Shown here piece by piece: positions 2,477-32,624 of a stretch of 41,785 bases of DNA. The notes beneath the pieces were generated by a model that was given only the letters and a program-made list of their open reading frames with translations, did no database searches and had not been told where the DNA came from. The position numbers were made by a program, and so were the translations under genes. The DNA is taken from positions 1-41,785 of IMG/VR virus record IMGVR_UViG_3300011422_000004; one strand, written 5' to 3'. Each line of letters starts with the position of its first letter. Position 1 is the stretch's first letter. This stretch comes from a virus (taxonomy: Duplodnaviria > Caudoviricetes).

Positions 2477-2487
2477 AAAGGACGGAG

Positions 2488-3072
2488 TTATGCCCTCCTG
2501 CGCTTCTTTGCTGCGGGTGCGATGGTCAATAAGAGTGGTTGTACCGGAATATGAGGAGCACTCGTATGCTTCTTGGAATTGCAGGATCTACATGCACCGA
2601 TAACGTTGTGTAGCGTATGCGAACCGCCTTGACTTAAGGGCTGGACATGGTCTTGCGTGAGATGCCACTTAAAACGTTTTCCGCAGTAGTAGCAGCGGTG
2701 GTCTTGTGCCGACTGAATTTCTCGCCACTGTGCTGCGGTGAGATCATTGATGGGAGCGCCCTTTTTGCGAGCGCTGTAGCTTTTCGTCCAAGCGGCGCTC
2801 AATTCAGGATGGGCATGTCTGCGGGCGCGAGACTTGGCGGTAAGTTCTGCCCGATGTATGAGACCATAAGCCTGCTGATAAGCAGCACGCTCTGCCTTGT
2901 GCGTTTCACCGTATTCACGGGCATAGGCAAGCGCGTGTTCTCTTTGAGCAACATACCAGGCGCGTTTCCTGGCATTCTGCTTGGCTCGTTCTTCTTCTGT
3001 CCATTGCAAACGCTTCGCATTTGCCCAGGCGTTCTTATAGGCACGGTCGGCTTCACGATTTTTGCGCGCCAT
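2488..3072 (-). CDS. HNH endonuclease A with N-terminal ~15-aa helical repeats
   Basis: CYYC...DHVQPLSQGGSHTLHNVIGACRSCN is an HNH (McrA-like) motif; antisense to flanking structural genes; lower GC. Confidence 0.92.
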   Translation of the reverse strand: MARKNREADRAYKNAWANAKRLQWTEEERAKQNARKRAWYVAQREHALAYAREYGETHKAERAAYQQAYGLIHRAELTAKSRARRHAHPELSAAWTKSYSARKKGAPINDLTAAQWREIQSAQDHRCYYCGKRFKWHLTQDHVQPLSQGGSHTLHNVIGACRSCNSKKHTSAPHIPVQPLLLTIAPAAKKRRRA

Positions 3073-3158
3073 GAGTCCATCCTCCGTAGATGGTCCGGGT
3101 TAGGTGTCCAGCAACGCGCCGGAAACGCGCTTGTCGGGTTGCAATCCCTAGCTGGACA
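3073..3158 (-). ncRNA. Structured leader RNA A (c4-antisense-like three-way junction plus RBS hairpin)
   Basis: Minus strand: UGUCCAGC-UA-GGG AUUGCAA CCC-GACAAG-CGCG UUUCCGG CGCG-UU-GCUGGACA, followed by CCGGA and CGGAGG (RBS), which are complementary to the loop; covaries with copy B. Confidence 0.7.
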
Positions 3159-3163
3159 AAGAA

Positions 3164-3172
3164 AGTATACCA
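3164..3172 (-). promoter_or_regulatory. Extended -10 promoter for leader RNA/HNH A
   Basis: TGGTATACT on the minus strand, 5 nt upstream of the RNA stem; copy B has TGCTATACT at the equivalent position. Confidence 0.7.
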
Positions 3173-3173
3173 G

Positions 3174-3205
3174 AATTATATCTTAGTTTAGGAGAAACTA
3201 CCATG
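3174..3205 (+). promoter_or_regulatory. Conserved cassette-end motif A containing the RBS of the downstream gene
   Basis: AATTATATCTTAGTTTAGGAGAAACTACCATG, 28/32 identical to 31423-31454. Confidence 0.8.
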
Positions 3206-3490
3206 CCTATGTCTGTTTTGGAACACGATACGCTCGCCAAAAGTTTTGCCGTGGCGAAAACGCTCCTGAACGACTTGCAACCCAAGCTCGCGGGGCTGGC
3301 GCAGATTTACGATAGTGAGGGCGGCATGCAAACCACGCTCACGCAAGAGGAACTCGACGAGCTGCCCGAATTGAGCGGCTTAACCGTGCAGCAGGTCACA
3401 GATGGGATGTACGCCATGACTACGATCATCTTGCCTGGTATCGTCAATGGCTATCCCGCGCTGGCCCAGCTCGCGGCGCGCTTCCTATGA
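3203..3490 (+). CDS. Hypothetical phage protein (tail-fibre associated?)
   Basis: RBS AGGAGA; 95 aa; first of an overlapping gene chain. Confidence 0.75.
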   Translation: MPMSVLEHDTLAKSFAVAKTLLNDLQPKLAGLAQIYDSEGGMQTTLTQEELDELPELSGLTVQQVTDGMYAMTTIILPGIVNGYPALAQLAARFL

Positions 3491-4340: not shown

Positions 4341-4753
4341 CAGGCGCCTGGGAGAGCACCGTGGCCGAACCGACGTCTGCAGCCACACCAGCGCCGGCCG
4401 CGCCGCCGGCCGGCGCGGCGACAAAATGGTGGCAGTGGCTCATCGTCTATCCAGCACTCGGGACCAGCCTGTTTGCCGCGGTGCCACGGGTGTGGGAAGA
4501 ATATAAGGCGCTACGCATGGGCGTGGCACGCGACCAGCTTCAGCTGGCGCAGGAGCAGCAGCGGCTCTGGCAAGCCAATTTGGAGTGTCTTCAGCAGGGG
4601 AGTAGCTACGAGGTGGATGGGCCGCATAACATTGTCGTGCGTGTGACCCTGTGCCAGCGCACGGGCGATACGCTGCTCCGGTATCACGTAGGCGACTGGA
4701 GCCCAATATATAGGTGGGTTTCACTTCCAGTGGAGAAGGTGAAGAAGCCGTGA
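4337..4753 (+). CDS. Single-pass membrane protein (possible lysis accessory)
   Basis: Hydrophobic WWQWLIVYPALGTSLFAAV followed by a Q-rich helix and two Cys. Confidence 0.65.
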   Translation: MTGAWESTVAEPTSAATPAPAAPPAGAATKWWQWLIVYPALGTSLFAAVPRVWEEYKALRMGVARDQLQLAQEQQRLWQANLECLQQGSSYEVDGPHNIVVRVTLCQRTGDTLLRYHVGDWSPIYRWVSLPVEKVKKP

Positions 4754-5328
4754 GAGCCCTCCTGCTCCTCGTCCTCCTCCTCGCCGTCTGCGCCTGCGCT
4801 GGCCCCCGCGACTACGTCGTGCTCCTGCCGGGTGGCACCGCGCCGCTCACCATCACCACCGCGCAGGGGCTTTCCCTGACGCTCGACACCGTGTACCAGA
4901 CGGCCACCGCGCGGCCGAGCGGCCGGCTCGAGGCCGGGATCACCACCGCCGAGATCGTGCAGGCGCGCTACGGCGCGGTGCTGCAAGCGACGCCGGAGGC
5001 GGGGCGGCTGTTTACGCTGCATTTCCAGACAGGTGGAACCACGCTCACGCCGGAGAGCCAGGCGGAGGTCCCGGGGCTGCTCGCCGAGGTCGTCCGGCGT
5101 GGCGCGGTCGAGCTCGAGATTACGGGCCACACCGATCAGCAGGGCAGTGATCAGGTCAACGATCCACTCTCCCTGGCCCGGGCAGAGGCGGTGCGCACAC
5201 TGCTCGTCGCGCAGGGCCTGACGGCCACGTTCGTGCGCGTCGTGGGACGTGGGGCCAGGGCGCCGCTCGTCGACGCCCCGGGGGAGCCGAACGCCACGAA
5301 TCGGCGTGTCGAGGTACTCATCCGTTAA
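4750..5328 (+). CDS. OmpA-family (peptidoglycan-binding) lipoprotein
   Basis: GTG overlapping the previous stop; lipoprotein signal RALLLLVLLLAVC; OmpA C-domain motifs GHTD...N..LSLARAEAV...GRG...NRRVEV. Confidence 0.88.
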   Translation: MRALLLLVLLLAVCACAGPRDYVVLLPGGTAPLTITTAQGLSLTLDTVYQTATARPSGRLEAGITTAEIVQARYGAVLQATPEAGRLFTLHFQTGGTTLTPESQAEVPGLLAEVVRRGAVELEITGHTDQQGSDQVNDPLSLARAEAVRTLLVAQGLTATFVRVVGRGARAPLVDAPGEPNATNRRVEVLIR

Positions 5329-16550: not shown

Positions 16551-16979
16551 GTGCCGGAACCGATTATTGGAGAGCGGATGCGTACGCTCCGCCAACGTCA
16601 AAACATCTCGCAAGCGGACCTGGCGCGTGCGCTTGGTGCGTCTATCAATGCGATTAACATGATCGAATGCGGTCAGGTCAAAGCGCCACATATTGAGCGT
16701 CTCATGGCGATGGCGGACTTGTTTGACGTCTCCCTGGATTATCTCGTCGGCCTCACGGATGATCCGACCCCGGTTGCGCGGCGCCGGACACCGGCTGGAG
16801 GCAGTGACCAGGGGCTCACCGTCGTTCCTACAGTCCTCCGCCATCAAGCCATGCCGCTCGTCTTTGGGCGCTGGAAGGACAAGGTTCCCCCAGATTTTGA
16901 CGCCCATTTTGACGAGCTCGACGAAGAGATCATCCGCCTGTTTGAGGGCGAGGACGAGGCGGATGCATCTGCTCGATAG
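16551..16979 (+). CDS. XRE HTH regulator fused to a VapB-like antitoxin tail
   Basis: N-terminal XRE (IGERMRTLRQRQNISQADLA...VSLDYLVG); C-terminal FGRWKDKVPPDFDAHFDELDEEIIRLFEG; overlaps the PIN gene. Confidence 0.75.
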   Translation: MPEPIIGERMRTLRQRQNISQADLARALGASINAINMIECGQVKAPHIERLMAMADLFDVSLDYLVGLTDDPTPVARRRTPAGGSDQGLTVVPTVLRHQAMPLVFGRWKDKVPPDFDAHFDELDEEIIRLFEGEDEADASAR

Positions 16980-17337
16980 TCACATCCTCCTGTGGATGCT
17001 CACCGATGACCAGCGGCTGAAGGCGTCTATCCGTGCCGCGCTCGTCCAGGCCGCCCCGCAGGTTTTTGTGAGTGCCGCGAGCGTCTGGGAGTTGAGCATC
17101 AAGCACGCGCTCGGGAAGTTACCCATGCCCGAGGACCTCGTCCAGGCGACGCTCGCGAGCGGGTTGCAGCCCCTGCCCATCACTATGCTGCACGCGCTCG
17201 CCGCTGGCGCCTTGCCGCCGCACCACCGCGATCCGTTCGACCGCATGCTCGTGGCGCAGGCGCAGATCGAGGGGTTGACGCTCGTGACGCACGATGCGCG
17301 TATGCGGCCTTATGACGTGGCGGTGCTGTGGGCGTAG
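16963..17337 (+). CDS. vapC: VapC/PIN-domain ribonuclease toxin
   Basis: LLDSHILLW...VSAASVWELSIK...HHRDPFDRMLVAQA..EGLTLVTHD; acidic tetrad intact. Confidence 0.92.
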   Translation: MHLLDSHILLWMLTDDQRLKASIRAALVQAAPQVFVSAASVWELSIKHALGKLPMPEDLVQATLASGLQPLPITMLHALAAGALPPHHRDPFDRMLVAQAQIEGLTLVTHDARMRPYDVAVLWA

Positions 17338-18765: not shown

Positions 18766-19848
18766 ATGTTCAATGCGAAGCGCTTGTGTCTCGCCAGACA
18801 GCGACGACGATTGACGGCAAAAGCCCTTGCTGAAGCTGCTGGGCTCTCGCACGTCACGATCTCACGATTAGAAAATGGGGAAAACACGCCAGATGAGGAT
18901 ACCGTCGCCAAATTGGCGAACGCTATGGGCTACCCTCGCACGTTTTTCTTTCAAGAAGATCCCGAGTCGATCGATGTCCGTGCGGTGAGTTTCCGCAGCC
19001 TGTCAAAAATGAGCGCGAAAGAACGCGATGCCGCTCTCGCCTCTGGGCTTCTTGGGTTAGAAGTGGCGGCGTGGCTTGAAGAACGCTTCTGTTTACCCAC
19101 GCCTGATCTCCTCGATTTGAGTTATGAGACGGACCCCGAGATCGCTGCACGGACACTGAGGCAGCACTGGGCCATAGGAGAAAAACCTATCGGCCATATC
19201 ATTTCCTTCCTGGAAGCGAAGGGCGTGCGCGTGTTTTCGCTCGCAGAAAATACCGCCGATGTTGATGCCTATTCCTTCTGGAGAGACGATAAGCCTTATA
19301 TGTTTCTGAATAATTTCAAAACGCCAGAACGTAGTGTCATGGACGCAGCACATGAACTTGGCCATCTCGTGCTGCATAAACATAGTGGAACACAGCCGGA
19401 GACGGACCTCAGTCGTGCGGCTGAGCGTGAAGCCGATCAATTTGCCTCTGCCTTTTTAATGCCCCAGCACGATCTGAAAGCGCAGATGCCTCGCCGGGTG
19501 ACTATGGCAAAGATTCTTCAGGCGAAAGCCCGATGGCGCGTCTCTGCGCTGGCCCTGGCCTATCGGCTCCATACGATAGGTCATCTGACCGATTGGCAAT
19601 ACAAATCCGTCTGTATAGAGCTAGGGAGGCGTGGGTTTCGCACAGGAGAACCAGGTGGGATGGCGCGAGAGACTTCTGCAGTGTGGCCGAAGGTGCTAAC
19701 ACAGTTGTGGGTTGAGCGTACCACCAAAGCAGGAATGGCTGAAAGCTTACATCTACCGCTGGATGAACTCGAGAGTTTAATATGGGGACTCACCGACACT
19801 CACCAGCCAAGTGAGAACAAGTGCCGTGTGCTGTCTCTTCTGAAATAG
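18766..19848 (+). CDS. XRE-HTH + ImmA/IrrE-family zinc metallopeptidase (RmrA-like)
   Basis: N-terminal HTH; DAYS...AAHELGHLVLH (HExxH); EREADQFASAFLMP. Confidence 0.9.
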   Translation: MFNAKRLCLARQRRRLTAKALAEAAGLSHVTISRLENGENTPDEDTVAKLANAMGYPRTFFFQEDPESIDVRAVSFRSLSKMSAKERDAALASGLLGLEVAAWLEERFCLPTPDLLDLSYETDPEIAARTLRQHWAIGEKPIGHIISFLEAKGVRVFSLAENTADVDAYSFWRDDKPYMFLNNFKTPERSVMDAAHELGHLVLHKHSGTQPETDLSRAAEREADQFASAFLMPQHDLKAQMPRRVTMAKILQAKARWRVSALALAYRLHTIGHLTDWQYKSVCIELGRRGFRTGEPGGMARETSAVWPKVLTQLWVERTTKAGMAESLHLPLDELESLIWGLTDTHQPSENKCRVLSLLK

Positions 19849-24548: not shown

Positions 24549-24756
24549 ACGTTCGGCGACCGCGCTGCTTGGGATCCTCCAGCGCCATGGCGTCACACGC
24601 GACGTCCTCGAAGTGTGGGTGCACTTTTGCGAAGCGCGCAAGACAGGCGTCGTCACGTACCATCATGTCAACGGGAAGGTCGAGATGGTCGAGGTGTCGC
24701 ACAAGAGCCGGGTGAGCGAGACGGGCAATGGGCTTGACAAAGACGTAGCACTCTGA
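24541..24756 (+). CDS. Small protein, DUF2292/YezD-like
   Basis: GVVTYHHVNGKVEMVE resembles the G-x-V-x-I-xx-x-D-G-K-V-xx-I-E pattern (family match from memory). Confidence 0.5.
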   Translation: MPERSATALLGILQRHGVTRDVLEVWVHFCEARKTGVVTYHHVNGKVEMVEVSHKSRVSETGNGLDKDVAL

Positions 24757-24763
24757 CGATACT
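24734..24763 (+). promoter_or_regulatory. Promoter upstream of head genes
   Basis: TTGACA-18-GATACT. Confidence 0.55.
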
Positions 24764-24812
24764 GTAGCATCGATTGCTGGTGCGTCCAGCACCAAGCGGG
24801 CCAATCTACAGG

Positions 24813-24858
24813 AAGCCCCATGGAGAGAGGTGTCCCTCTCTGCTATGGGGCTTTTTTT
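24813..24858 (+). terminator. Intrinsic terminator in the head-gene leader
   Basis: AGCCCCATGGAGAGAGG-TGTC-CCTCTCTGCTATGGGGCT followed by a T run. Confidence 0.8.
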
Positions 24859-24871
24859 GTTGGAGCACGTG

Positions 24872-26326
24872 ATGCCACGCACGACACGGCGCCTCACCAT
24901 CCAGACCGCCCTCACCGTTCCCCCCGCGCGTCTCACCCTGAACAACCGAGAATACCTCACTGCCCCCGCTGTGCTGATTGTGGAAGGCGTGTTGAACGGA
25001 TCATACATTCCCGGCAGCGAACTCGTTGCGCCTGACTGGAACAACGTCCCCGTCGTTATCAATCATCCGCTCGATGCGCAGGGCGTGCCTATGAGCGCGC
25101 GTACCCCCGAGGTCCTCGCCGCCTCCGGCGTCGGGCATCTCTACCATGCCCGGTTGGGCACGGGGCAGCGCCAGGGGCATACGGTCACCAGCTTGCAAGC
25201 CGAACTCTGGCTCGATGTGGCCCAGGTGCAGACGGTCGGCGGCGAAGCGGTGCAGGCCATGACGATGCTCGAAGCGCAGACGCCCCTCGAGCTCTCCACC
25301 GGCTTTTACTCCTACGCCGAAGAGACCAGCGGCGCCTTCTACGGTGTGCCCTATAGCGAAGTGCATCACGATCTCCGGCCTGATCATCTCGCCCTCTTAC
25401 CAAACGGCATCGGCGCCTGCGACTGGCAGAGCGGCTGCGGTTCGCCGCGCCTCAACCAGCAGTGCACCTGCCATCAGGAGACGCCTATGGATCATGCTCA
25501 GGCGCGCGGCTGGCGCGGCTTTGTGCACACCCTCAAAACCTTTGTGCAGCAGGAAGAGGCCGGGAGAGAGCCGGGTCCGCCGGTCGTCTTTGTCAATGGC
25601 TACTACGTGGGCGATGGCACACAGGAGCAGGTCTGTGCGCTGGCGCGGCAACTGCCGACACCCCCTGTGCGCACGAACCAGACCGACGCCGACACCCGCG
25701 AGGCGCTCTACGGTGCCCTGGCGCGGGAGATGGGTATCGATTTCACCCCGATCTTCATAGATGCGGTCGACATGGCCAATCAGACCTTCACGTACCGGCA
25801 GGGCGAGCGCCTCATGCAGCGGTCCTGGACGCTCGAAGATGGCCAGATTGCCCTCACCGACGGCGCGCAGGACGTGCAGCGCCAGACGACGTACGTGCCC
25901 GTCACCCAAGCAAAGGAGGACCCCCCTATGGCCACTGAGGCGGTAAAAACCCGCGTCACAGCGCTCATTACAAACACCGCCACGGCTTGGCAGGAAGCCG
26001 ACCGCCCACAGCTTGAGGCGATGAGCGAAGCGCAACTGGAACGCTTAGAACCCAATACGGACGCGCTCGCGGCACTGCAGGCGCAAGAAACGCGCAAGGC
26101 GGCGGTGATTGCGGCGCTGGTGGCGAACACCTGGTGTCGGCTGAGCGAGTCCACCCTGAAGAGCATGGCGCTCCAGGAGCTGGAGGACCTCACGGCGATG
26201 GGCGCGCAGCAGGACCCCTCCTACGCCGGGCAGGGCTTGCCCGCCAGTCCGCAGCAGACCGAGAAGCTTGAGGACTGGAAGCCCCTCTCCATTCTGACCA
26301 GGCAGGTCGAGGCCAAGAGCGCGTAG
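24872..26326 (+). CDS. Prohead protease/scaffold (DUF2213-like)
   Basis: VEGVLNG...PVVINHP...ELSTG...DHLALLP...GAC; helical C-terminus; precedes capsid genes. Confidence 0.8.
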   Translation: MPRTTRRLTIQTALTVPPARLTLNNREYLTAPAVLIVEGVLNGSYIPGSELVAPDWNNVPVVINHPLDAQGVPMSARTPEVLAASGVGHLYHARLGTGQRQGHTVTSLQAELWLDVAQVQTVGGEAVQAMTMLEAQTPLELSTGFYSYAEETSGAFYGVPYSEVHHDLRPDHLALLPNGIGACDWQSGCGSPRLNQQCTCHQETPMDHAQARGWRGFVHTLKTFVQQEEAGREPGPPVVFVNGYYVGDGTQEQVCALARQLPTPPVRTNQTDADTREALYGALAREMGIDFTPIFIDAVDMANQTFTYRQGERLMQRSWTLEDGQIALTDGAQDVQRQTTYVPVTQAKEDPPMATEAVKTRVTALITNTATAWQEADRPQLEAMSEAQLERLEPNTDALAALQAQETRKAAVIAALVANTWCRLSESTLKSMALQELEDLTAMGAQQDPSYAGQGLPASPQQTEKLEDWKPLSILTRQVEAKSA

Positions 26327-26362
26327 GCTGGCAGTATTCTCTTGCAACGAAAGGGGGTTGGC

Positions 26363-26803
26363 ATGCCCAACCAGCAAATAATGCGTTGGGGGCCGTGTAA
26401 TCAGGCGCACGCGACCGCGCAGGCGCTCATCACGCCTGGGGATCTCATCGAGATGATTGCCACGCCTGGCGCGGACAATGGCAAAGTCCGGCCCCATGGC
26501 ACGGCTGCCGGGCGTGCCGCGCCGCTCTTTGCGGACGGCAACTGGCAGTTTGGGAAGTGCATCGACGACGTGTACCCCATTGGCGACACGGTGTTCACCC
26601 TCGCGCCCAGTCAGGGCGCGCGCATCTTCGCGCGCTGTGCGACGGGCACGGCGATTCCCGTGGGGACGCCCCTGGAATCAGCGGGCAATGGCCTCTTGCG
26701 CGCGGCCACGACGGGACCGATCGTCGCCGAAGCGTGGGAAGCGGAACTCGCGTCGGGTGATCCGTCGCCCGGACGTCTCGTGGTGCGCATCGTCGCGCAA
26801 TAA
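26363..26803 (+). CDS. Capsid decoration/cement protein
   Basis: ITPGDLI...G..LESAGNGLLR; position before the major capsid gene. Confidence 0.7.
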   Translation: MPNQQIMRWGPCNQAHATAQALITPGDLIEMIATPGADNGKVRPHGTAAGRAAPLFADGNWQFGKCIDDVYPIGDTVFTLAPSQGARIFARCATGTAIPVGTPLESAGNGLLRAATTGPIVAEAWEAELASGDPSPGRLVVRIVAQ

Positions 26804-29555: not shown

Positions 29556-30468
29556 CATCATGACCGCGCTGCTGACACCGCTCCAGGCCATTCCCGACAT
29601 CGGCCACGTCTACCCCTACGACCGCATCGCCCTTGAGCCGACCGCCCTGAACGGCGTCCTGGGGCCGCTGCCCACCCTGCGCTACTGGTGCCTGTCGCGT
29701 GCCGGTACCGCCGAAGTCTGGCGCGGCAATGCGAGCGTCGAGCGGCTGCACCGGCTACGGCTGCGGGGCTACCTGGCGCTGGATGACCCGCAGGCCTCAG
29801 AGCGCGTGTATCAGGACCTGGTGGATGCGGTACTCGACACGTTAGCCAGTGTGGTCACTGTGCCAGGAAGTGCCGAGTACCTCACTGCCCCGACGCTTGA
29901 GAGGCAAGAGCCGCGCCGCCTGTCAGACACGGTCGATGTGCACTTCAGTGAGACGTTCGTGGTAGCGTCCGAGTATCTCACGGTCCCTGCACAGGAGGTC
30001 CCTGACGACACCATTACGACGTATCGCGCTCTGGGCGACTGGCTGACTGCGCAGCTCGCCACCATTCCGCAGATCGGCCTGGTGCATTCCTACGAACGGC
30101 TGACGGTGGAACCGGATCTGGCGTCCGGCGTGTTCGGCGATCCCCAGGCGTTGCGCGCCTGGACGCTGACGCGTGAGAGCGTGCAGCACGAACGCAGCCC
30201 TGGCCTGGAAAGCCGCGGGCAGGCGCGGCTGGTGCTGCGCGGCTTTCTCAGCGTGGACGACCTGCAGGCCTCCGAACTGGTGCTGCAAGGGCTCCTGGAG
30301 GACGTCGCAGCGGTGCTCAGGCCGATGCATACGGTGGGAGCGTTTGACCGCGTGGGGCCACTGCAGATCGAGGAGGTGTCGCACAGCAGGGTTGGAGCCA
30401 CGCACCTCTGTCACTACGCCCAATGCGCGTGGCCGGTGGAAGCATTTGCGCTGGCGCTCAGTGCATGA
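29542..30468 (+). CDS. Tail terminator-like protein with an internally duplicated domain
   Basis: Two halves: IPDIGHVYPYDR...RLRGYLALDDPQASE and IPQIGLVHSYER...VLRGFLSVDDLQASE. Confidence 0.7.
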   Translation: MPLADIMTALLTPLQAIPDIGHVYPYDRIALEPTALNGVLGPLPTLRYWCLSRAGTAEVWRGNASVERLHRLRLRGYLALDDPQASERVYQDLVDAVLDTLASVVTVPGSAEYLTAPTLERQEPRRLSDTVDVHFSETFVVASEYLTVPAQEVPDDTITTYRALGDWLTAQLATIPQIGLVHSYERLTVEPDLASGVFGDPQALRAWTLTRESVQHERSPGLESRGQARLVLRGFLSVDDLQASELVLQGLLEDVAAVLRPMHTVGAFDRVGPLQIEEVSHSRVGATHLCHYAQCAWPVEAFALALSA

Positions 30469-30539
30469 CAGACGATTTCGTCATCATCATCGCGCTGCTC
30501 GGGCTGGTCGGGCTGGCGCTCTACATGGTCTTTCTCTAA
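30465..30539 (+). CDS. 24-aa membrane peptide (not in the ORF track)
   Basis: ATGA overlap; MTDDFVIIIALLGLVGLALYMVFL. Confidence 0.45.
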   Translation: MTDDFVIIIALLGLVGLALYMVFL

Positions 30540-31306
30540 GAGGCTTTCTTCTTTTTGCTGGGCGCGATGGTCAAGAGCAGGGGCTGCACCGGGCACAATG
30601 GTGGGCCGGTATTTTTTCGAGAATTACAGACTCTGCATGCTGCAATCACGTTTGTGAAGGTATGCGAACCACCTTGCGACAAAGGAAGAATGTGATCTTG
30701 TGTGAGCTTGCCTTTGCACCGTATGCCACAGTAGGCACAACAGTGATCCTGAGACGCCTGGATCTCTTGCCATTGGGCAGCGCTCAAATCATTCACAGGT
30801 GCAGCGGCTTTCCGGGCACGGCGACGGCGTCTTATGGCAGCGATGATAAGAGGATTGGCTGCCTGATACATCTTTTTATACGTAAGTATGGCCTCGCGAT
30901 GAGCACGATGGTAGCGGTGTTTCGCCGCAAGTTCTGCGTCGCGATGCGCTACGTAATACGCGCGGTCTCGCAGACGTATGGCCTCTTGGCGTCTTTGTCG
31001 GGCCGCACGCTGTCGCGCGTTTCGTTTCTCTTTATGCAGAGCACAATAGGCGCGGTCGCGTGCCCTGATTTCCTCGTTGCGTCGCACACGATCAGCATGT
31101 TGTTTCGCCTTAAAACGTTCTGGATTAGCAGCATAGGCTGCATTCTGGCTCGCGCGTCTGCGTTCTATGTGTGCGGCATCATACAGACGTCGTTGGGGTT
31201 TATGTGTCGCAGCATAGAGGCGATTCTTCAGACGGATGAGTTCCCGTTTCGCTTCGCGATACGCCGCATGGTAGGCACGATGCGCTTCTGGATCTTTGTA
31301 TGGCAT
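30536..31306 (-). CDS. HNH endonuclease B with ~10 N-terminal 15-aa repeats
   Basis: CAYC...DHILPLSQGGSHTFTNVIAACRVCN; nuclease region 61/86 identical to HNH A by hand alignment. Confidence 0.92.
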   Translation of the reverse strand: MPYKDPEAHRAYHAAYREAKRELIRLKNRLYAATHKPQRRLYDAAHIERRRASQNAAYAANPERFKAKQHADRVRRNEEIRARDRAYCALHKEKRNARQRAARQRRQEAIRLRDRAYYVAHRDAELAAKHRYHRAHREAILTYKKMYQAANPLIIAAIRRRRRARKAAAPVNDLSAAQWQEIQASQDHCCAYCGIRCKGKLTQDHILPLSQGGSHTFTNVIAACRVCNSRKNTGPPLCPVQPLLLTIAPSKKKKAS

Positions 31307-31392
31307 GGCGCTCTCTCCTCAGTAGAGAGTCTCAGGAAGTGGCACGGCAACCCGCTGAGACGGGCTTTCGGGCTGCAGACCCTAGCCGTACC
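31307..31392 (-). ncRNA. Structured leader RNA B (c4-antisense-like)
   Basis: Minus strand: GGUACGGC-UA-GGG UCUGCAG CCC-GAAAG-CCCG UCUCAG CGGG-UU-GCCGUGCC, followed by CUGAGA and CUGAGG (RBS), complementary to the loop; a G-U pair in the outer stem forms only on the minus strand. Confidence 0.72.
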
Positions 31393-31398
31393 GTGTGC

Positions 31399-31407
31399 AG
31401 TATAGCA
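31399..31407 (-). promoter_or_regulatory. Extended -10 promoter for leader RNA/HNH B
   Basis: TGCTATACT. Confidence 0.7.
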
Positions 31408-31422
31408 CAGGACACATAGGAT

Positions 31423-31454
31423 AATTATATCCTAGTTTAAGGGAAACTGCCATG
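31423..31454 (+). promoter_or_regulatory. Conserved cassette-end motif B containing the RBS of the tail-tube gene
   Basis: AATTATATCCTAGTTTAAGGGAAACTGCCATG. Confidence 0.8.
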
Positions 31455-32624
31455 GCCGAACCATCGGTAACAAGTATTGGGTATTTAACCCGAATAGGAA
31501 TAGGTGAAGAGGAAATTTACGGGACGCCCGTCCTCACGACGCAGGTCCTGCCGAGTATCAGCGAGTCGCTCAACGACGTGTACGCGGAAATTCCCGACGA
31601 ATCGTTGCAGGGCTCGCCGGTCTATGGGACACCGGAGCAAGGCAATTTCTCAGCCACAGGCGATATTGTTGTCCCGATGCGCTACGCCAACGAGTGGGTG
31701 CTCCTGAAGCATTTCTTCGGGGCGTTCGCCGCTGGACGCTATGACCTCGTCGATAGTCTGCAAGGCCAGGGACTGACCATCTCCATCGACAAGCAGGTGC
31801 TGGGCGTCTGGGATTATCCCGGCAGCAAAGCCACGCAGATCCAGTGGACGTCGAACGCCGATGGTGTGATCCTCACCACCAGCGTGATCCCTGGCGGCTT
31901 GCAGCTCAACTCGACACTCAATACGCATGCGCACCTCGTCACCCTCCTCCAGGACTCCAGGCGCCTCCTGCATCACCATCTCAAGCTCTGGGTTGGGACG
32001 CAGGATCACGCGCTGACGATCGCCGATGATCTGTGCTGTAGCGAACTGACCCTGACCATGGCCAGGCCCATGGCCATTGACTACACGAACTGTAGTCAAA
32101 ATCCCATGGAGCCCATCGAAAACGCCTTTCTGACCTTTCGCCTGGCGATCACGTTCCCGCGCTTCCGCACTGAGGAAGAGCAAATCATCACCTGGAGGCA
32201 GAACTATACGCAGCTCCAGGCCCAACTCACATACACGCATCCCACGACTGGCCAGACCAAGACGCTGGTGATTCCGAACCTCACGTTCGTCACGGCGACG
32301 GCGCCGACGGCTGGTCCCGGGCCGCGCGTGCTCACGACCGAGGCCTCGATTACACGGGGCGGCGGCGTGACGACCAGCGCGCAGATCGCCATTGCGTCGA
32401 ATGTGCTGACCATCACGGCCGGCACCTTTCCCCGGGTGGAACCGGGCTCCCAGGTCACCATCAGCGGCGCGACGACGCCGGCCAACAACGGGACGTTCGA
32501 AGCCACAGCCTGGACGCCCACGTCCATCACGCTGAAGACGCCGCCGGCGCTGACGGACGAGGCGGCGGGGGCGACGATGACGGTAGCAACAGAGAATCCA
32601 GTAATATATCTTTTGGAAACATAA
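31452..32624 (+). CDS. Tail tube/major tail protein 1 with C-terminal beta-rich accessory domain
   Basis: IGIGEEEIYGTPV...SISESL...TISIDKQV...YPGSK; position between terminator and chaperone. Confidence 0.75.
   Translation: MAEPSVTSIGYLTRIGIGEEEIYGTPVLTTQVLPSISESLNDVYAEIPDESLQGSPVYGTPEQGNFSATGDIVVPMRYANEWVLLKHFFGAFAAGRYDLVDSLQGQGLTISIDKQVLGVWDYPGSKATQIQWTSNADGVILTTSVIPGGLQLNSTLNTHAHLVTLLQDSRRLLHHHLKLWVGTQDHALTIADDLCCSELTLTMARPMAIDYTNCSQNPMEPIENAFLTFRLAITFPRFRTEEEQIITWRQNYTQLQAQLTYTHPTTGQTKTLVIPNLTFVTATAPTAGPGPRVLTTEASITRGGGVTTSAQIAIASNVLTITAGTFPRVEPGSQVTISGATTPANNGTFEATAWTPTSITLKTPPALTDEAAGATMTVATENPVIYLLET

Follow-up and report, generated by a model that had tools for sequence, protein, structure and literature searches.

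The int-alpA motif (Rfam RF02996) is an orphan RNA family that is reportedly traced to a survey by Weinberg in 2017. Our search of the literature, which took in few subscription papers, returned no function or mechanism for this RNA and no remark on a palindromic loop; the supplement of the original survey may already mark the loop pairing or the palindrome described below, and the main text of PMC5737381, in the portion available, does not name the motif. A second point of comparison is the c4 RNA (RF01695) of phages P1 and P7, where, according to the sections of PMC5320573 that treat it, hairpin loops of variable code pair near the ribosome-binding site of the element's own transcript. The c4 RNA uses two such loops, a' and b', it arises when RNase P processes a longer transcript down to about 77 nt, and an altered code could change its specificity (PMC5320573). 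RNA structure also limits the translation of the mobile endonucleases I-TevI, segB and Aeh1 mobE of T4-like phages: the parts of PMC2988022 that concern them describe simple cis hairpins that sequester the ribosome-binding site and are relieved by a late promoter from which one arm is left out, and report an antisense orientation for T4 segD. In retroviruses, 6-nt palindromes (the HIV-1 DIS) and GACG loops (MoMuLV and MoMuSV) are described kissing motifs of the 5' leader, and the monomer-dimer state modulates translation (PMC7357161, in its passages on dimerisation).

The DNA examined here is a viral record of 41,785 bases, which we refer to in its entirety as the window. Its terminase, portal, head, neck, tape-measure and tail-fibre genes lie on the plus strand, and inside these late structural operons there are two intergenic ORFs in antisense orientation that encode HNH proteins. 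HNH endonuclease A (2488..3072, minus strand, 194 aa) matches PF01844 with an E value of 2.7e-13 and retains its Cys, His and Asn motif residues; HNH endonuclease B (30536..31306, minus strand, 256 aa) also matches PF01844 and is 51% identical to A over 81% of A. The catalytic and zinc-binding residues C127, C130, H142, N156, C161, C164 and N165 are unchanged across 77 aligned HNH sequences, and the predicted nuclease motif of both proteins is intact. Elsewhere in the record we observed a hydrophobic 24-aa ORF (30465-30539, plus strand), possibly a small membrane peptide, whose stop codon overlaps that of HNH B; an OmpA-family domain protein shortly past the tail-fibre region (4714-5328, plus strand); a PIN-domain protein and a protein with HTH and IrrE/ImmA-type peptidase domains just 5' of the terminase genes (16693-17337 and 18766-19848, plus strand); and a sub-threshold Rfam match to mir-23 (29759-29882, E 0.085) that is most likely due to chance.

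Both HNH genes are preceded on the minus strand by one shared layout, and every element that an earlier sequence-only reading of this DNA had named was found in its place. In copy A an extended -10 box (TGGTATACT, 3164..3172), recognised by consensus match only, stands 5 nt before a three-way-junction leader (3105..3158). An 8-bp stem, P1 (3151-3158/3105-3112), encloses UA, the hairpin P2 (GGG-7 nt-CCC, 3136-3148), a GACA linker and the hairpin P3; a second TATAAT lies at 3175-3180. The loop of P2, L2 (3139..3145), consists of one base and the palindrome UUGCAA and is predicted to be a kissing loop. The loop of P3, L3 (UUUCCGG, 3119..3125), targets the ribosome-binding site by complementarity: it matches T1 (CCGGA, 3094..3098), 6 nt past P1, and T2 (CGGAGG, 3081-3086), which is the Shine-Dalgarno sequence and sits in the loop of a weak RBS hairpin (3077..3093). 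The corresponding parts of copy B are an extended -10 box (TGCTATACT, 31399..31407) 6 nt before P1, a second TATAAT at 31424-31429, the three-way junction itself (31341..31392) with P1 at 31385-31392/31341-31348, an L2 made of one base and the palindrome CUGCAG (31373..31379), an L3 that again targets the ribosome-binding site by complementarity (UCUCAG, 31355..31360), T1 (CUGAGA, 31330..31335) 5 nt past P1, and the Shine-Dalgarno target T2 (CUGAGG, 31317-31322) in the loop of a weak RBS hairpin (31311..31329). The palindrome in the 7-nt loop of the first hairpin had gone unremarked in both copies. The 61-nt cores of A and B fold with z scores of -3.30 (0/200 shuffles as good) and -3.11 (1/200). 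The RBS hairpin is unremarkable on its own, with z values of 0.00 and +0.34 in the window and a median of -0.75 over the tails of 25 leaders of class I (defined below), and it was dropped as a separate conserved element because it is not significant. A search of the window with model R1 returned the two copies and no third.

Homologous leaders were gathered through the protein that follows them. A protein search gave 341 relatives among 471 candidates, and an alignment of 77 was used to fetch loci from viral, metagenome and genome contigs, 244 in all, with HMM scores of at least 140 being kept. The 135 nt before the best start codon were parsed for a three-way junction; four loci without a start codon were left out and copy B was merged with the identical L161, giving 85 distinct regions. 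Geometric filters, set after the leaders had been viewed and blind to loop pairing, accepted 53 of these and rejected 32, nine for having no junction and 23 for the wrong geometry; some of the rejects visibly bear the motif and were misparsed, and others are truncated. One distant HNH locus without loop pairing, L091, is included in the test of L3 against its targets (37 loops) and excluded from the L2 and later counts. A search of GTDB genomes yielded 59 loci, all of them short HNH core matches and none from the close HNH subfamily, and a cultured-phage search with leader B gave no match. Viral contigs were also searched with sequence patterns: the class I pattern, in which L2 was left as seven Ns, found 47 stretches (29 distinct hits), and the class II pattern found 26, of which nine are structured, all nine preceding HNH-type genes.

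L3 is matched to its own tail. Among 37 distinct loops (apical 8-mers of P3), 27 have at least six Watson-Crick pairs with their own tail, as against 27 of 1332 mismatched combinations, and a run of at least five occurs in 35 of the 37 as against 122 of 1332. The summed longest Watson-Crick run is 224 compared with 130.5 +- 5.4 under permutation, no permutation in 20000 being as high; a repeat of the test gave 221 against 127.0 +- 5.4 (0/5000). The region 5' of P1 gave no match to L3 (4240/5000 permutations as good). The earlier proposal that this loop covaries with targets around the ribosome-binding site is borne out by these counts. It is also right about the stems, which pair in 95.5% of cells in a MAFFT alignment of 21 class I leaders, where the search pattern fixed the P2 stem of the rows, and in 88.6% of cells in 18 class II rows, where P1 is partly cut off and so uncounted; in both alignments none of 500 shuffles is as high, and the pairing is far above all slid controls.

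The leaders fall into two classes. Class I (25 leaders, including both window copies) has a short P3 and, in 24 of the 25, two sites 10-15 nt apart, the first lying 5-12 nt past P1 and in 16 leaders just 5-7 nt past it. Class II, with 27 leaders, is marked by a long P3 and a single strong site that abuts the Shine-Dalgarno sequence, with no matching distal site; junction and site are 20-24 nt apart, the spacing being exactly 22 nt in 19 of the 27. Class II leaders such as L108, L113 and L027 have a junction strand of the form CG...AAG. Covariation shows L3 pairing at the ribosome-binding site with a single target in class II and with two in tandem in class I. P1 length and linker length are negatively correlated, but this follows from the fixed total distance and is no evidence for pairing in trans.

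The second loop obeys a different rule. The central 4-mer of L2 is palindromic in 33 of 39 distinct P2 hairpins, where 5.7 would be expected naively, with seven different cores, and a 6-nt palindrome is present in 29 of the 39 (expected 1.4); P3 loops, taken for comparison, have a palindromic 4-mer in 6 of 47 and a palindromic 6-mer in 1 of 47. The six exceptions are two GACG tetraloops, two GC centres with U-U mismatches and two apparent misparses. Among the pattern hits, L2 is palindromic in 21 of 22 with a P1 of at least 5 bp (six kinds of core) and in 1 of 7 without P1; these hits overlap the lineage of the window and 12 of the 22 have the core UGCA, so they do not represent 22 independent events. 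A quick tree of 51 HNH domains left 33 of 48 inner branches open and its L2 labels were loosely assigned, so independent loop changes could not be counted on it and it was not used. The two central self-pairs of L2 hold in all 21 class I rows, with 5 and 9 double changes, and in all 18 class II rows, with 5 and 6. L2 matches neither its own tail (125 compared with 120.2 +- 4.0; 689/5000 permutations as good) nor the upstream region (2184/5000). The double changes indicate an apical loop whose self-complementarity is maintained by compensatory change.

Adjacent loop bases cannot pair within one strand, so this constraint would imply either a second molecule or a symmetric DNA site. The strongest reason for favouring RNA kissing over an operator is that L2 alternates between exactly the two motifs, palindrome and GACG, of the retroviral kissing loops, and we regard the formation of kissing dimers through L2 as quite probable on these grounds. 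The likeness extends to the position of the loop, at the apex of a hairpin in a 5' leader (PMC7357161, in the passages cited above). The retroviral loops serve genome packaging in animal viruses, whereas here the loop is coupled to another that pairs with the Shine-Dalgarno sequence in a predicted phage mRNA; the comparison is an analogy and no homology is claimed. In five leaders (L154, L180, L170, L124 and L117) the whole P2 hairpin is a near-perfect palindrome of 14-16 nt that could form an extended duplex like that of the mature HIV-1 DIS dimer.

Among described RNA families, int-alpA is the nearest to the window leaders. An Rfam scan of the window gave a single relevant match, to int-alpA on copy B (31.9 bits, E 0.0073); the gathering cut-off of RF02996 is 35.8 bits and copy A was unreported at E values up to 5, so neither copy reaches it and we call them int-alpA-like. 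Four of 15 class I pattern loci pass the cut-off (L294, L305, L277 and L313; 37.4-53 bits) and four more match below it; none of five class II loci matches any Rfam family at E values up to 2. The window leaders have the int-alpA architecture, namely a three-way junction with an 8-bp P1, CUAG at J12/P2 and a GAAA-type J23, and their L3 is complementary to the 3' tail, as it is in the Rfam consensus and in canonical members. They differ in location: the name of the family points to an integrase or alpA neighbour, but the window leaders lie in late operons before HNH genes. A pattern built from the int-alpA consensus had no hits in a viral search, and RF02996 was found in none of four single genomes; in 151 genomes of the class to which G005 belongs there were 19 matches in 12 genomes. 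Seventeen of these were analysed as canonical, a duplicate and one below the cut-off being left out. Their L2 is palindromic in seven, a GACG tetraloop in seven and neither in three, so that 14 of the 17 have an L2 of the self-kissing type. Their L3 pairs at least five bases with its own tail in 15 of the 17, against 22.9% of 884 mismatched pairs, and all 17 have two sites of at least four pairs, the tandem arrangement of class I. An integrase adjoins 10 of 12 canonical loci (a tyrosine integrase; 26 of 74 ORFs were scanned), and none of 14 ORFs downstream of the RNA has a Pfam or PHROGs family. Matches to Druantia DruA lie at L328:2237-3004 and L340:288-992, just past the ORF that follows a canonical int-alpA beside integrases. 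The window leaders are thus divergent RNAs of int-alpA type, and both loop rules hold across the family; unlike the canonical members, they precede mobile endonucleases and have their own -10 box. What is new relative to the known orphan RNA is the mobile-endonuclease variant and a single-target class without an Rfam match, together with a mechanism that we did not find in print.

The leaders had previously been taken for a recruited c4-like module. The Rfam check for C4 gave no match at E values up to 5 in the window or up to 2 in 20 related loci, and the two-loop targeting characteristic of c4 is absent, since only L3 pairs with the mRNA; c4 membership was rejected on these two counts. The resemblance lies in the use of a variable loop code near the element's own ribosome-binding site, but here one loop targets and the other is self-complementary, and the RNA begins at a predicted +1.

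The units to which these leaders belong are mobile, which agrees with the sequence-only reading of them as cassettes. Cassette A (2477..3191, approximate ends, minus strand) lies between the tail-fibre stop codon (2474-2476) and the ribosome-binding site of the next late gene (ATG at 3203). In a relative (G001/L318) the tail-fibre stop stands directly before the ribosome-binding site and start of the orthologous gene and cassette A is absent, so A is an insertion of about 715 bp; the same relative does carry cassette B, with 88% identity over the region. Conversely, two head-gene junctions at which the window has no insert are occupied in L170 and L038 by cassettes of roughly 800 bp. Such optional presence between genes, and above all the absence of A from its site in a close relative, identifies these as mobile endonuclease cassettes. 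The empty head-gene junctions lie at 26327-26363 and about 24620-24900 in the window and bear cassettes in L170/L173 and L038/L249. Both window cassettes share a segment of 34 nt (3174..3207 for A and 31423..31456 for B, plus strand) that includes the second TATAAT and provides an outward-facing ribosome-binding site and start for the interrupted late gene, which for B is a 390-aa gene at 31452. Similar segments flank L005, L035, L170 and L374. In 24 of 39 loci a divergent ORF that has an RBS-like word begins 15-110 nt 5' of P1.

The leader is not confined to nuclease genes. Of 18 downstream proteins scanned, nine are HNH or endonuclease VII proteins and one is a GIY-YIG/NUMOD3/AP2 endonuclease; the other eight are a Mom-family protein, a replication initiator, a primase-like protein, two glycosyltransferases, a tail chaperone and two that fall into no clear family. 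Leaders before non-nuclease genes (Mom, replication initiator, glycosyltransferase, primase-like and tail chaperone) include L286:1501-1542, L271:1501-1541, L279, L284 and L294. Its occurrence before unrelated proteins marks the leader as portable and not as a nuclease subunit. An RNA-guided nuclease, with the leader as guide or scaffold for HNH, was rejected on two grounds: the match of L3 is to the mRNA of its own cassette, and genes for proteins other than nucleases also have the leader. The T4-like hairpins resemble these leaders in limiting translation of a mobile endonuclease through RNA structure, but they are without a junction, a loop code or a palindromic loop as far as the relevant parts of PMC2988022 describe them. 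By analogy with what is argued there for T4 segD, transcription of the late operons through the antisense cassettes may silence them at a second level (PMC2988022, in part).

Of 49 leaders, 39 have a -10-like box no more than 20 nt from P1, at a gap of 2-9 nt, and only 2 of 52 have a U-tract past P1; on this evidence the RNA resembles the opening 55 nt of the mRNA. So short a gap would leave RNase P no 5' stretch to remove, and a CCA-like 3' end occurs in 7 of 52. Neither extended -10 box coincided with a full promoter in scans for sigma-70 promoters, in which one site ended at the upstream TATAAT of B, and a search past leaders A and B found no terminator. Together with the fixed spacing, the predicted +1 and the rarity of U-tracts suggest a tethered leader rather than a freely diffusing small RNA, and the fixed spacer argues for tethered pairing, either within one molecule or within a dimer.

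We also considered how far the loop codes keep coexisting cassettes apart, as had been proposed. In the window each L3 prefers its own tail to the other's (-7.8 compared with -5.2 kcal/mol, and -11.1 compared with -3.8 kcal/mol), which agrees with that proposal. L2 does not separate cassettes A and B, since the two share the UGCA core and cross-pairing equals the self-pairing of A (-4.5 compared with -4.5 kcal/mol). In one related lineage, that of G003 and G004, there are two leaders with the same L3 and a different L2, which refutes orthogonality by L3 alone. G173 has two leaders with the same L2 and a different L3, both loops differ in G163 and in the L160/L170 contig, and in G180 L2 differs while the L3 core is shared. 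Within the six multi-copy lineages no two leaders agree in both loops, but such agreement is rare in random leader pairs as well (37 of 1326), which leaves this comparison without power; the multi-copy records fit a two-key code composed of L2 and L3.

These observations suggest a circuit in which L2 joins two transcripts and L3, once they are paired, masks the ribosome-binding site, so that nuclease dose would be capped by RNA alone; we give this about an even chance of being correct. Transcription would start at P1 from the extended -10 box, as its consensus match indicates. P1, P2 and P3 then form and L3 pairs with its site or sites at the ribosome-binding region, the step that covariation shows. 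L2 would find its pairing partner in another molecule, since the two pairs at its centre are impossible within a single 7-nt loop. A lone transcript would be translated and paired transcripts would be locked, so that a short burst of nuclease would be followed by an RNA-only cap as the phage replicates, and an incoming copy with the same loop codes would be silenced. Expression on entry into a naive cell is possible under such dimer repression. We count in its favour that the downstream genes code for DNA enzymes whose dose matters and whose folds are unrelated (HNH, GIY-YIG, Mom, replication initiator and primase). With the usual figures for helix rise, a T1 just 5-7 nt past P1 would, on rough geometry, be marginal for spanning a stacked helix of about 14 bp within one molecule. 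Against dimer repression stands the report that removal of the hairpin restraining I-TevI left the viability of T4 unaffected, which may mean that such genes can do without tight control (PMC2988022, in part). The exceptions to the L2 rule (6 of 39 hairpins, and 3 of 17 canonical RNAs with neither motif), the relatedness of many rows, the cross-pairing of the A and B loops and the 32 of 85 regions without an acceptable junction also count against it.

Covariation separates neither cis from trans pairing nor repression from activation, and a switch of the opposite sign has to be weighed first. Here the monomer would lock its own ribosome-binding site in cis, with L3 on T2, and kissing would shift L3 to the T1 of the partner or remodel the junction, so that nuclease is made late, when copies are many and homing pays. 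The same covariation of L3 and L2 would be seen, a second site distal to the ribosome-binding site is present in nearly all class I leaders, 10-15 nt from the first, and T2 is easily reached in cis. Class II, however, retains the palindrome while having one site at the Shine-Dalgarno sequence and no matching distal site, and to put a nuclease or a Mom-type enzyme under positive feedback looks hazardous; we think activation by dimerisation unlikely. We take a similarly sceptical view of a pseudoknot acting purely in cis, in which L3 would toggle between T1 as a decoy and T2 at the ribosome-binding site, giving a low constant rate, and the L2 palindrome would serve something else, such as a DNA operator bound by a dimeric protein. 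The fixed distance from junction to target fits pairing in cis, the palindrome and the P2 arms together make an inverted repeat in the DNA next to +1, and some T4 endonucleases autorepress at operators (PMC2988022, in part). An operator would nevertheless need a matching protein for each of the palindromic cores, seven among the 39 P2 hairpins and six among the pattern hits, and the leader stands before proteins of unrelated folds; the replacement of the palindrome by the non-palindromic GACG in some leaders fits RNA kissing better than a DNA operator. Very unlikely, finally, is the model of the sequence-only reading, in which a c4-like small RNA, released by cleavage or termination, builds up and acts in trans to silence the HNH mRNA, giving cassette-specific immunity: loop and target do covary, tandem targets 10-15 nt apart could suit the two L3 loops of a small-RNA dimer, and Rfam types int-alpA as Gene; sRNA, but there is no C4 match, one loop alone targets and has no upstream target, U-tracts and CCA-like ends are rare past P1, the spacer length is fixed, and two cassettes of one phage can have the same L3 code.

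Extended from the window to the int-alpA superfamily as a whole, dimer repression would describe protein-free and ligand-free riboregulators that count themselves, the leader being both sensor and repressor: L2 would homodimerise, L3 would lock the ribosome-binding site, the unit could be fitted before any dose-sensitive gene, and the two loops, each varying on its own, would give the several cassettes of one phage a two-key address. We place this generalisation a little short of an even chance. If it is true, an orphan Rfam family gains a concrete mechanism. The findings also widen that family to take in mobile endonuclease cassettes and a single-target class that had not been catalogued. Few reports exist of RNA oligomers that occur naturally, and what they mean for biology is described as mostly mysterious in the accessible part of a 2026 review (PMC12990946); a clear example with a function would be provided by a bacterial mRNA leader whose homodimer governs translation of that same mRNA. 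The unit of roughly 55 nt, with its two recodable loops, would be a compact part for concentration-feedback circuits, and its place before HNH genes would offer a new answer to the question of how selfish nucleases limit their dose.
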